A DNA stretch of 64,000 nt from Eledone cirrhosa (taxonomy: Eukaryota). Both the position numbers and the translations under genes were made by a program. This document shows, in pieces, positions 18,481 to 57,237 of this stretch. The stretch is from the NCBI GenBank assembly GCA_964016885.1, contig OZ024753.1, forward strand, positions 20,026,001 to 20,090,000. The letters run 5' to 3'. The stretch's first letter is position 1. Each line of letters starts with the position of its first letter. The notes below the pieces were generated by a model that ran no database searches, was not told where the DNA came from, and saw nothing but the letters and a program-made list of their open reading frames with translations.

Positions 18481-19426
18481 TGTTGCCCGGAGGCTCCAGC
18501 GTGAGAGTAATATAGATAAGGAAAGCGGTCTATCTTGGACCAACAACCGCTATATTGACTCCCACTTTGAAAGATACGCTTTTGCAATCCAAGAACAGGA
18601 AATCAACAGAAAATACCTGATTCACAAAAGAGATAGGATTGCAGGCAAAACATCTAGATGTTACAACAAGTGCAGACTCTGCAGAATTAACATCGAAGGT
18701 GTCAACCATGTAATATGCAGCTGTCCAAAGATGTCATTGCGGTACTATCTACCTATGAGTTGGCCAATGCAATCCGTAGAAAAGTTAGCCCCGACAATAA
18801 ACACATTAAGAAGCTACAGCAATGTGGAAGAGATGCATGTACATAATATGAAAGAGTACAGATATAATATGGGACCGGGAAAAGAAGGCATGTACACTAG
18901 TGAAAGTTAGCTGCCCAGCAGATGCCAATATAATATCAAAGATTAGTGAAAAGGAGAATATCTATGCAGAACCAATTAGAAATCTGCAGATTCTCCACCC
19001 TGATTATACCTTCAGATTTATACCTGTGATTGTTAGGGCACTGGGATATGTTAGTAACTGCCTCAATACAAATCTTGACGGGCAAGGCTTCACAGAAACA
19101 GAAAGAACACAACTAGTTAGGAAATTACAAGTACAATCCATTAATGGAACAGTACAAATATGTAAAACATTCCAAAAATTCTGCATCTAATAACTGCATG
19201 TACACATGTGCAGATACAAATCATATGCACATGCACACATACAACTGCACACATACAACTCAAAACATCCACATCCACACATACAATAACATCCATATCT
19301 ACACATGCATACATAATCTACCTAGTTGATATTGTGTAAATTCCAATAAGATAGTCGTGTATCTATGTTAGAAACCGACTCTCTCTCTATTGGGAACACT
19401 TTGTGAAATTATAAAACCAGAAGAAC
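18481..19426 (+). mobile_element. R4/Dong-type non-LTR retrotransposon, 5'-truncated copy with internal deletions
   Basis: CCHC and RLE remnants, common 3'UTR, end AAAACCAGAAGAAC; (CATA)n on both sides. Confidence 0.9.
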
Positions 19427-19601
19427 ATACATACATACATACATACATACATACATACATACATACATACATACATACATACATACATACATACATACAT
19501 ATACATACATATACATATATACATATATACATATATACATATACATACATACTCACACACACATATATACATACATACATATACATACATGCATACATAC
19601 A

Positions 19602-20756
19602 TGATGGCTGCAAACTGCTAAGAGTATTGCAATCGCTTGACAGATTCAGATGTGGGACGCTGGAATATGGCTTCTCCAGCCTGCTAGGGACTTGCACTCC
19701 TTCACACACTGACGACAACTATGGAACTCCCTGGCTTGAGGTCCTGCATCAGGTTGCCCGTGAACTCTCACAACACTGTGGAGATCATAGTTCACTGGTT
19801 CTCTTTGAACATGGCTGCGACTGTGGCTCCTGAGACCAGATTTGCTCAAGCAAATTTTTCCACACTCAGGGCACTTCAATTCAATGGAGACAGATCGTTT
19901 TGCGAGATACACCAGGGCATTGCTTACGCACATCCCCTTTGATCTTCCCGTGATCTATGCGTCTGTCCTCAAAATGATGGACCCATCATTCACCATTCCA
20001 CGCTAAGTTTCTCTTTCAAGAGCTTCTATCTCCCAGTCAGCCACCAACAAACCAGCTTTTTTTCAATGAGTCCTTTACACAATCCATGAATCGGAGCTTT
20101 GGTTTGTGAGGTTGTCTCTTACCCTCACAAAGCTCGCCATACAAGAGTTGTTTTGGGATTCAATCATCCTCCATTCTGCAGAGGTGTCCGGTCCATCGCA
20201 AACGCTGTTGGTGGATGATACTCTCAATGCTCCGACACTCACTTCTCTCAAGGACCTCAACATCACTCACAAGGCATCTGCCACTTAAAACCAAGCAGCA
20301 TTCTGAGACACTGCTAATGAAACCGTTCCAGTCTGTGGATATGCAGTTTGTAGGCAACCCATGTCTCACAGGCATACAGCGAAGCTGACAGTACACATGC
20401 AGCCTACACTCTCACCTTGGTCCTCATTGTGATTCCTCGCCTGCACCAAAGACGGTCGTTGAGCCTTCCAAATGACTCACTTGCCTTACTTACGTAGACC
20501 AACTTCTGCATCCAGAGAGCAGGCCACACTCACAGTACTCTCCAAATACACAAATGTGTCAGCAGCCTTCAGCTTTTGACCGTATACGTATATGGAGGGT
20601 TCATTGAAAACTTTATCCGGAGCAGGCTGGTACATGACGACAGTCTTCTTCAGGCTTATTGTCAGTCCCAAATCACTGCACACGTTGGAAAAAGAATCCC
20701 TAAGGTGTTACATGTCACTCTGGGAGTGTGCAAAAGACATCTCAATCATCTGCATA
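19602..20756 (-). mobile_element. RTE LINE 3' fragment (RT C-half + C2H2 fingers)
   Basis: Begins at YADD; LGLTISLKKT, RLRWTGHLCRM, CPECGKICLSKSGLRSHSRSH, CRQCVKECKSLAGWRSH; ends GCAGCCATC + (TATG)n. Confidence 0.9.
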
Positions 20757-21126
20757 TATACATATACATACATACATACATATACATACATATACATATA
20801 TACATATACATACATACATATACATAAATGTGCATACATATATATATATACATACATATACATATATACATATACATACATACATACATACACACACATA
20901 CATACATACATACATATATACATACATACATACATACACCCACCCATACATACATACTTGCACACACACATACATAGATACACACATACATACACCCACA
21001 CCCACATACATACATACACCCACCCATACATACATACATACATACATACATACATACATACATACATACATACATACATACATACACACCCATACATACA
21101 TACACACACCCACACATACATACACA

Positions 21127-54013: not shown

Positions 54014-54052
54014 AATTTATTGCATACATACATATTATTATTACAAATATAC

Positions 54053-57000
54053 ATATTACGTGTTATTGACGAAATCGGGATGAATATTTACGACGGATAA
54101 AAACCCCAACATTTTAGCAAATCAACGCCTGTTTATATGCCCTAGCAACGACAGTGAAGCATTATCTCGGTGATAGCAGAGATATTAACAAGAACAAAAC
54201 ACCACCAAAAATACCATCATATATAACTAACATAGAAAAAAAGAGTGCTGACATACGAAAAAACATAGGACATGTGATAATGCTCTTTACATGAAAACAA
54301 ACACAAAAAAACCTCACTCCTCACCAACAAGAGTGAAAAATAAAATAGAGACGATGTTTGGTAACAGTAGAACCAGAACTCTCCAATATAAGGTGATCAC
54401 CCTCAAACAAGAATTGAGAGCTGTTAGCGAAAAACGCGGATACCTCAAGAAGGTAGATGAGAGAAAAGTGATTAATAAAATATTCAGACGACAGTCTTTA
54501 GAGATATGAAGAACAACATAAGTGTCACTGAGGCCCCATCCCAGAAAGACATAGATTCCTTTTGGAGAAAAATATGGGGTGAAAAGAAGAATTTCAACCA
54601 AGATGCAGTGTGGCTAAGGGAAATCCGAAAGAACTATTGCTCCTACACTACAACAAAAACATACGAAATAAGAGAGGGTACCCTTGAGACTGTGATAGGA
54701 AAACTCCAAGATAAGAAAACACCAGGAAGAGAAATGATTGTCGGCTACTGGTACAAAAAACTGATATTCTATCGGAGGTATCTTACTGACCTCTACCAAC
54801 AAGTTCTTAAGGGAGATACACTTATACCAGGTTGGTGGACATTAGCACAAACATTACTGGTCCCCAAGAACAAAGACACCTACTTGGCAAAAAACTACCG
54901 ACCCATTGCATGCCAGAAACTGATGTATAAGATGTAAACAGCCTGCTTGAAACTATTCCTCCAAGATCACTGTGAAAATAATAACATCATCACAGATGAA
55001 CAAGCAGGTGGAGAGAAAGGGGTCTGTGATGTGCTGAACAACTCCTAATCAACAAAACTGCGATGTCGGAGGTGCGACAACTTAGGAGGAATATGACTAC
55101 AGTCTGGCTGGACTACAGGAAAGCTCTCGATTCTGTTCCCCACTCTTAGATGATAGAGGCCATCCAACTTGCTAAAGTCCCAGACATTATTGTCAGAGCC
55201 ATAGAGAGGCTGTCTTCTTCTTGAGCTACTATCCTAAGGTTAAAGACAGAGAGGGAGGACTCTATTTTCACAGATAAAATAAAATATTGTATGGGTATAT
55301 TTCAGGGGGACAGTCTCTCTGTGATATTGTTCATCTTGTCATTAAACCCCTTGTTCTTTCTGCTCAAGAAATGTGAGGGATACATCATTGGCTCACAGGA
55401 GGACAGAAACACGAACCTACCCCATAATTTCTTTGTGGACGATCTGAAACTCTATGCCAAGAACATGGATGGCATGTAGAAAAATATTGACCTGGTTACA
55501 ACGTTCTCAGAGGATATAGGAATGGAGTTTGGCCAAGATAAATACTCATAGAAGTTTGTAAAGCGGGGAAAAACAACAACCTGCTCTAGCAACATTGTCA
55601 TCAATGGCCTAACTGTTTCACCGATATCTGATGAGGACTGTTACAGATACCTGGTGATAGATGAGAACATATCCTATAATGGTATCTGTAATAAAGAACG
55701 CGTAGCCAGGGAATACTACACCCAATTAAGAAAGATCTGGTCATCGGAACTCTCTGCGCAAAACAAAACAGTGGCTCACAATGTGTTTCCTGTGCCTGTC
55801 CTAACACCAACATTTGCAATACTCAATTGGACGATAGACGAAATCCGAGCAGTTGATGTTGGAACTCGAAAAATACTAATCAACACCGGAAACTTCCACA
55901 TCAACAGTGACATAGACCGCATTTACTTGAAACGTAAGCAGGGAGGCAGAGGCCTAACATCAGTCCAGACAACATTTGAATGTCGCATCATATCTCTCTG
56001 ACATCTATGAACCTCGAAGCGTAGGAGCCCGTTTCTCGAGTAAGTCTATCTGCATGAAACAGAGAAGATCATGAGAGTTGGGAAGGAACACCTCGAGAGA
56101 TATTCCCTGTGTGATAATCAAAAACTCACACCCACGGAAGTCGCTCAGCGGAATCGCAGTGTATCCATGGATGAAAAACTGCATGCTTATCAGCAAAAAA
56201 TCATGCATGGATATGTTGCCAGGAAGCTCCAGAGTGAGAGTAATATAGATAAGGAAAATAGTCTCTTACTTGGATCAACAACCGCTATATTGGCTCCCAC
56301 TTTGAAGGATACGCTTTTGCAATCCAAGAACAGGAGATTAACACGAATTACCTGATTCACAAAAGAGATAGGGATTCAGGCAAAACACCTAGATGTGATA
56401 ACAAGTGCAGACTCTGCAGAACTACCATAGAGGATATCACCCATGTCATCAGCAGCTGTCCAAAGATGCCATCGCGGTACTATCTACCTATGACGCATGT
56501 TGTAGTGGCCAAAACACTCTACAATGCAGTTCGTAAAAATGATAGCCCCGATAATAAACACATTAAAAGCTATAGCAATGTGGAAGACATCCATGTACAT
56601 AATATGAAAGTGTACTGATGGAATGTTCCAGTAAAAACCCCAATAAAATGCAGGCATAACAGACCAGATATTATGCTATGGGACAGGGAGAAGAAAGCAT
56701 GCACAGTAGTAGAAGTTAGCTGCCCAGCAGATTCCAATATAATATCAAAGATTAATGAAAATGAGAATAGTTACGCAGAACTGCTGAGAAATTTGCAAAT
56801 ACTCCAGCCTGATTACACCTTCAGATTTATGCCTGTGATTATTGGGGCACCGGGATATGTTAGTAACTGCCTCAATACAAATCTTGAGAAGCTAGGCTTC
56901 ACAGGAACAGAAAGAACACAACTAGTTAGGAAATTACAAGTACAATCCATTAATGGAACAGTAAAAATATGTAAAACATTGCAGAAATTGTGCATCTAAT

Positions 57001-57237
57001 AACTGCATATACACATGTACAGATACAAGGCATATGCATGCACACATACAACTGCACACATACAACTAAATACATACACATTCACACATACCATAATATC
57101 TATATCTACACATGCATGCATGCATACATATCTACCTAGTTGATGTGTAAATTCCAATGAGAGAGTCTTGGGTCTATGTTAGAAACCGACTCTTCCTCTA
57201 TTGGTAAAACTTTGTGAAATTATAAAACCAGAAGAAC
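54053..57237 (+). mobile_element. R4/Dong copy, 5'-truncated
   Basis: RT, CCHC, RLE and end CCAGAAGAAC|ATACATAC. Confidence 0.93.

Follow-up and report, generated by a model that had tools for sequence, protein, structure and literature searches.

Whether a retrotransposon can single out the tetranucleotide repeat (CATA)n as its insertion site is the question raised by a stretch of 64,000 nucleotides of the Eledone cirrhosa genome (contig OZ024753.1, positions 20,026,001 to 20,090,000 of the forward strand; the whole stretch is referred to below as the window). Six copies of one retrotransposon without long terminal repeats (a non-LTR retrotransposon), designated A to F, lie there within 39 kb. 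A first-pass annotation, made from the letters of the sequence, had described them as an R4/Dong element apparently specific for (CATA)n, the repeat being a target and not just a tail. Dong elements have been reported to target TAA (PMC7998251, PMC3812793; all papers are cited here from excerpts). We consider it probable that these are the dead remains of an R4/Dong-type element which inserted by ordinary target-primed reverse transcription (TPRT) with (CATA)n as the target. The family belongs very probably to the R4/Dong clade, yet it is not a Dong of the TAA type.

Copies of the element and the CATA repeats at their ends

Self-comparison of the window confirmed the six copies and their orientation, with the 3′ end always on the plus strand (Table 1). 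They represent a single-open reading frame (ORF) element encoding reverse transcriptase (RT), a CCHC knuckle and a restriction-like endonuclease (RLE), and every copy is broken by private lesions. Pairwise identity reaches 91.5-94.6% among B, C, E and F, 87.5-90.7% for A and 81-87% for D (81-95% overall). The 5′ end is reached by B and C, C starting 11 nt short of B, and A, E and F are truncated at differing points; such a fixed 3′ end combined with variable 5′ truncation is seen in RLE-type non-LTR retrotransposons. The differing truncation points, the unrelated flanks and the 81-95% identity indicate separate insertions, and segmental duplication was ruled out by the flanks and the truncation points.

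Exactly four junctions of AAAACCAGAAGAAC with a following ATACATAC exist in the window, all of them on the plus strand and at the ends of A, B, E and F (19426, 30000, 49730 and 57237), which agrees with the four such ends counted in the first-pass annotation; a motif search of the whole window found no such junction on the minus strand. Copy C lacks the last ~80 nt and passes into (CATA)17, and copy D has a degenerate 3′ end. Flanks were scored by the perfect CATA units within 40 nt, and the repeat was counted as present upstream when they covered at least 12 nt. These units cover 40, 40, 40, 0, 29 and 12 nt upstream of A to F, respectively, and 40, 40, 40, 18, 11 and 11 nt downstream. Five of the six copies, 5′-truncated ones included, therefore have CATA upstream, in agreement with the earlier claim, where the plus-strand background is 3.6% for the window and 5.6% for the part between 17 and 58 kb; these five copies are bordered by CATA at both ends. 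The binomial probability is 3.3e-6 for five of six copies and 4.9e-5 for four of five without C, whose upstream run is the tail of B, both values overstating independence as the sites are clustered. A high-copy short interspersed nuclear element (SINE) with 16 matches in the window, used as a control, has no CATA flank at either side of any of them. Only A, B and C adjoin a perfect CATA run within 4 nt, and microhomology between the 5′ junction and the repeat was seen in A (ATA) and C (CA).

The commonest repeat of the window is (TA)n (140 runs, 3170 nt), compared with 65 runs (1368 nt) of the ACAT type and 7 runs of AAT; nevertheless no copy junction consists of pure TA or TAA, and ATACATAC stands at each of the five 3′ junctions that look intact, despite the more than twofold greater abundance of (TA)n. 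TAA runs flank none of the six copies, so the (TAA)n target of Dong in the narrow sense does not apply. The element might instead have a loose preference for alternating purine-pyrimidine AT-rich microsatellites (TA, CA, CATA), the uniform ATACATAC being copied from its own RNA. The 2.9-kb array at whose end copy F lies has 52% TA-type 4-mers, E and F reach CATA through 11-20 nt of degenerate, partly TA-like units, the tail of D is CA-rich, and a second family of elements, described below, sits in the same arrays with mixed flanks. We find this explanation rather improbable, since A, B and C adjoin 13-18 perfect CATA units and degenerate runs are to be expected after decay in copies diverged by 5-19%.

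The layout of the neighbouring elements helps to separate a target from a tail. Copies A, D and E meet, tail to tail over one CATA run, elements that we take, from the combination of apurinic/apyrimidinic endonuclease (APE) and RT, to be RTE-type; A and E are CATA-flanked at the opposite side as well. The tail of the short elements is that of a minus-strand long interspersed nuclear element (LINE) fragment (20750 to 19601) and is followed by (GTAT)n, and the 5′ untranslated region (UTR) of the APE and RT LINE at 21720-24930 matches the body of one of them with 86% identity over 323 nt. The common tail and the 5′ UTR match identify the short elements as non-autonomous RTE-type elements, antisense to the copies, and those next to A and E are indeed antisense with (RTAT)n tails. 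They were also considered as sense-strand SINEs with the AGAAGAAC end of the R4/Dong-type LINE, which was rejected because their other end is the RTE-type tail; no similarity was found between them and copy B or the fetched relative loci.

With antisense neighbours the upstream runs of A and E are not sense-strand tails, and these two copies likely split a pre-existing CATA array. Upstream of B lies a free-standing array and upstream of F the 2.9-kb one, neither preceded by an element of the same family, so that the four copies A, B, E and F have upstream runs unexplained by a sense-strand tail. This speaks against the explanation in which CATA is merely a tail added by the element, with upstream runs arising by template jumping between RNAs, local deletions or passive build-up in a repeat-rich, low-recombination region, which we hold to be unlikely. 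It would account for C, and for all copies falling in one cluster; moreover, passive accumulation near CA repeats has been proposed for Drosophila Waldo-A/B (PMC3812793) and template jumping has been described for R2 (PMC13708176). A jump from sense RNA, however, cannot supply runs next to antisense neighbours, B and F have no neighbour of this kind, and the SINE control has no CATA flank at any of its 16 matches. Within the window, the initial view of the repeat as a target and not just a tail is thus supported, and by the antisense neighbours of A and E more strongly than was apparent at first.

The encoded protein and its relatives

Copies B and C give a match to the Pfam family RVT_1, and DYxKAFDS, FQGDSLS, FFVDDLKLY, the CCHC knuckle and PDI..D..EISCP are encoded among the copies. 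Copy B carries DYKKAFDS, FQGDSLS, FFVDDLKLY, the knuckle and RPD..D..EISCP; FQGDSLS and FFVDDLKLY are found in F as well, CRxC-x8-H-x4-C in A, B and F, and PDI..D..E[IV]SCP in B, C, E and F. A majority sequence built from B, C, E and F yields a stop-free frame of 906 codons. The first-pass expectation that an intact ORF could be rebuilt holds to that extent, with 28 codons left ambiguous and with the 5′ end (~930 alignment columns, 103 ties) drawn from two copies alone. The 3′ UTR folds better than its shuffles (z -4.3), the copies themselves being dead.

Intact relatives have about 1150 aa and are 43-48% identical to copy C, and the N-termini of B and C (the latter starting at 30261) match theirs. 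RT and zf-RVT are the sole Pfam families in 18 full-length relatives; no APE family of the kind that characterizes Waldo was found in them, a C-terminal RLE being present instead, and no Myb family was detected by Pfam. The best solved-structure match of the relatives' profile is R2 (E 8e-54, aligned through the endonuclease), and R2 proteins take Foldseek ranks 1-7 with the model of a relative. R2 has N-terminal zinc fingers, and none was seen in the window element. In the models of two relatives, the locus L001 and the protein P0020, the N-terminus forms three helices (predicted local distance difference test 80-90), for which most of the top VIA rows are SANT/Myb domains, with Z of only 5-6.9, and the Atlas lead is Myb_Rap1 (0.85); Foldseek with the N-terminal model returned nothing under E 0.001. 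With moderate confidence the N-terminus is thus predicted to form a three-helix, Myb/SANT-like domain lacking zinc fingers. A Myb/SANT domain has been reported for R4/Dong (PMC7998251), and the N-termini of L001 and P0020 align with those of TAA-flanked loci.

A search with the alignment of the 18 relatives gave the best 80 of at least 353 metagenome loci, one locus of a viral collection and 13 loci of a genome collection. Among the listed loci 33 had a match reaching the C-terminus and were examined for the first repeat after the ORF, which is AAT in 15 of 33, another trinucleotide in six (several running into AAT), CTTA in one (L001) and CATA in none; the remaining 11 have no repeat there, mostly with little sequence left. 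L001, which has the top score against copy C among the loci listed, carries (CTTA)n at either end of its contig, at 1-100, 228 nt before the ATG, and at 4822-4869, 1055 nt past the end of the match. Its 1147-aa ORF between the (CTTA)n runs is intact and makes it a ready candidate for biochemistry.

Relationships were estimated with a quick maximum-likelihood tree computed from the RT region (67 rows by 467 columns, four window copies included), supported by the Shimodaira-Hasegawa-like approximate likelihood ratio test (SH-aLRT) only and not by bootstrap. The four window copies group with L001 (SH-aLRT 95) within a subclade of 31 rows (100), itself inside a clade of 56 rows (98) that holds all TAA-flanked loci; the nematode proteins P0071/P0072 belong to the sister group. 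Identity of the copies to the fetched TAA-flanked loci is only about 30%, and a protein of Octopus bimaculoides is 57% identical to copy B. In this tree the window family falls into a distinct subclade among the TAA-flanked Dong-like elements. The endonuclease motif of the subclade is E-[IVF]-S-C-P, mostly without the K of KY, and that of seven TAA-flanked loci shown is D-[IV]-A-[IV]-P..KY; one may speculate that the motif is linked to target choice.

The CTTA runs of L001 hint at a tetranucleotide-targeting subclade, represented so far by two families. More tentatively, and in our view less likely than not, an R4/Dong subclade spread across marine invertebrates (Octopus and Hydractinia proteins included) might have switched from TAA to C(A/T)TA, changed its endonuclease motif and come to live antisense on the microsatellite tails of RTE-type elements.

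The exact 3′-end pattern has no match in metagenome and viral contigs, the window protein was not found in viral contigs, and the 13 loci from genome-collection contigs are distant, none being of the window family. Part of copy B is present in 7 of 11 sequencing runs. Read depth was followed over copy B in four runs and rises from the 5′ to the 3′ bin 15-fold in one (X4) and 26-fold in another (X3), as for a 5′-truncating LINE, which indicates that the family is abundant and mostly 5′-truncated. Tables of loose read ends and joints on copy B are dominated by the SINE inserted in it and are uninformative on the flanks. The read records over the element ends (551, 2587, 1 and 388) could not be used as CATA flanks, because a letter match is not implied, and the AT-rich loose ends at 29696 and 29751 were set aside since they coincide with piles of library starts or ends and with low-complexity DNA.

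Proposed mechanism and comparison with known systems

By analogy with R2 and Dong, the Myb-like domain and the endonuclease would together read the repeat; the TATG strand would be nicked and would prime cDNA synthesis at the 3′ end of the RNA, with some help, perhaps, from a few CAUA units; microhomology of 2-3 nt would then serve to join the 5′ junction. Each insertion would leave target on both sides, so that copies could stack, as B and C may have done. The RTE-type family of the opposite strand likely has its tails or targets in many of the arrays and would thereby provide fresh landing sites. The shift from TAA to a tetranucleotide may be a trait of the subclade, given the position of L001 between (CTTA)n runs.

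Several observations weigh against this explanation. The evidence for (CATA)n specificity comes from a single cluster in a single window, in which the insertion sites are not independent; copy D has no upstream CATA, E and F reach the repeat by degenerate units, and the same arrays are occupied by a second family as well, as they would be in a passive hot spot. Strict specificity as first proposed is accordingly backed by five of the six copies of one window, with D as a counter-example and with the second family in the same arrays. L001 is one locus, the stop and the 3′ CTTA run are 1055 nt apart in it, and the 270 and 407 nt remaining in the subclade loci L002 and L003, respectively, contain no repeat. 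The tree rows include no named R4, Dong, Rex6, R2, NeSL or HERO; domains, fold and tree agree with the R4/Dong identity assigned at the outset, the tree doing so with no named R4, Dong or Rex6 in it. Finally, Dong and R4 carry a 5′ hepatitis delta virus (HDV)-like ribozyme (PMC3774820). Our own descriptor found none in the loci L001, L009, L011 and L016 or in copies B and C, where decay of the copies or uncertainty of the true 5′ end may be the cause, and did find one in the TAA-flanked locus L081; Rfam gave no ribozyme among the best 150 of 190 rows, only repeat-driven microRNA-like rows below the gathering score.

That the CATA target is real but confined to a young subfamily, with older copies like D having gone to other sites and the subclade having no general tetranucleotide habit, fits the divergence of D, its different 3′ end and missing upstream repeat and the single locus L001, and is compatible with most of the (CATA)n-target explanation, but it seems to us very unlikely, D being rearranged, with its original 5′ junction perhaps lost and its 3′ side still CATA-rich (18 of 40 nt).

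If (CATA)n is taken as the target, the closest known systems are Dong of Bombyx mori, DongAg, DongBg and the ostracod Dong1/2. They share with the window element the single ORF, the Myb/SANT-like N-terminus without zinc finger, RT, the CCHC knuckle and RLE, as well as insertion into a microsatellite with the repeat left on both sides (PMC7998251, PMC3812793). The window element differs from them by its place in (CATA)n instead of (TAA)n, its separate subclade and its altered endonuclease motif. R2 (R2Bm, R2Tg) and R4 of Ascaris differ in their ribosomal DNA targets, R2 being the best match in sequence and fold and the TPRT chemistry presumably the same. RLE elements have moved to microsatellites in other clades and to other repeats, Togen (NeSL-related) to (TG)n and also some HERO families (PMC4640811). 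ACAY repeats, which include (ACAT)n and hence (CATA)n, are the target of the APE-type Waldo elements (WaldoAg1, WaldoAg2 and WaldoFs1, R1 clade; PMC3812793). Waldo has an APE endonuclease and belongs to an unrelated lineage of insects, so a common target would be convergence. In the excerpts of the literature searched, Repbase being outside the scope, no CATA or other tetranucleotide target was found for R4/Dong. The first-pass annotation, which knew of no described (CATA)n specificity without excluding one, agrees with these excerpts as regards the clade; as a retrotransposon target the repeat is not new, given Waldo.

Dong-R4 LINEs are abundant in Octopus (PMC13282606, PMC8967140), where they comprise 51 families and 92.7 Mb in the genome of O. 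vulgaris (PMC13282606). For O. bimaculoides a full-length Dong consensus has been reported, its target not being stated in the excerpts (PMC9115989). The words 'cata' and 'target' have no match in the searched text and supplements of PMC13282606, and no match was obtained in the four of eight supplements of PMC9115989 that were searched. The window family is probably among the annotated Octopus Dong-R4 libraries.

Confirmed genome-wide, the (CATA)n target would give an insertion site to one of the larger octopus LINE classes, help to explain the long composite CATA arrays of octopus genomes and add a tetranucleotide, convergent with Waldo, to the targets of R4/Dong. Relatives associated with TAA, CTTA and CATA could serve to map a change of specificity in an R2-like protein, with a bearing on retrotransposon-based gene insertion; if the subclade did change its target, CATA/CTTA versus TAA would form a natural series for finding specificity residues in the Myb domain and in the endonuclease. 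What is known of the clade's mechanism is unchanged, and shifts of microsatellite target are already a known theme; the likely move from TAA to a four-letter repeat is a modest but testable one.

Other features of the window and of the relatives

Table 1. Copies of the element, neighbouring elements and repeat arrays, with positions in the window
Feature	Position	Strand	Description
RTE-type non-autonomous element	17771-18398	-	body 86% like 5′ UTR of LINE 21720-24930; tail like LINE fragment at 19601
(CATA)18	18409-18480		upstream of A
Copy A	18481-19426	+	5′-truncated; knuckle to 3′ end, internal deletions
CATA array	19427-19600		tail-to-tail, common to A and antisense RTE-type LINE fragment
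RTE-type LINE fragment	19601-20750	-	5′-truncated; ends GCAGCCATCAT(GTAT)n, inside CATA array behind A
APE and RT LINE	21720-24930	-	5′ UTR matches short elements; ends approximate
(TATG)6 CATG (CATA)17	25604-25699		upstream of B, no element adjoining
Copy B	25700-30000	+	near full length; broken ORF about 25920 to 29763
SINE within copy B	26481-26662	+	182 nt, high-copy, 16 matches in window
(CATA)13	30001-30051		between B and C
Copy C	30052-34039	+	head-to-tail behind B; broken ORF 30261-33895
(CATA)17	34040-34107		behind C
Copy D	45311-46740	+	most diverged; 55-nt forward piece, inverted 45358-46211, forward 46217-46740
Two RTE-type short elements, tandem	46884-47407, 47440-47740	-	between D and E
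Partly degenerate CATA run	47741-47783		upstream of E
Copy E	47784-49730	+	5′-truncated within RT; between antisense RTE-type short elements
Two RTE-type short elements, tandem	49745-50056, 50165-50803	-	behind E
TA/CATA array	51115-54052		upstream of F; ends in (CATA)23 and degenerate units
Copy F	54053-57237	+	5′-truncated; at end of 2.9-kb TA/CATA array; (CATA)3 and unique DNA beyond

The SINE inserted in copy B is presumably of the Nin-domain type. Copy D, with its 55-nt forward piece, 854-nt inversion and 1.4-kb deletion, resembles a product of twin priming, best known for L1, and the array preceding copy B is a palindrome that could form a long hairpin.

Further RTE-type short elements were recorded at 3780-4359, 4963-5416 and 16680-17023 on the plus strand and at 21124-21165 on the minus strand. 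The short elements are built of the LINE 5′ UTR and a LINE-like 3′ hairpin tail and stand head to tail in TA/TATG arrays; being repeat-flanked on both sides, they may themselves prefer or make arrays. The 5′ truncations of those at 47440-47740 and 49745-50056 differ by no more than 4 nt; the opposite strand there reads AAAAAGAAGAAC, resembling the 3′ end of the Dong-type element, either by chance or through a common recognition motif.

Among the relatives, tRNA-like heads open the TAA-flanked loci L009 (1-120), L011 (84-168) and L016 (100-200), of which ARAGORN called L011 only, as tRNA-Gly, and L081 begins with the HDV-like ribozyme candidate. The eukaryotic Dong-like pieces L082-L088 and L091-L093 lie on short contigs of bacterial genome records and are most likely contamination. 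Towards the end of the window, the minus strand carries a GIY-YIG fragment at 61858-62331 (Pfam E 0.001), which we take to be Penelope-like, and a further RT-bearing LINE fragment at 62595-63953.

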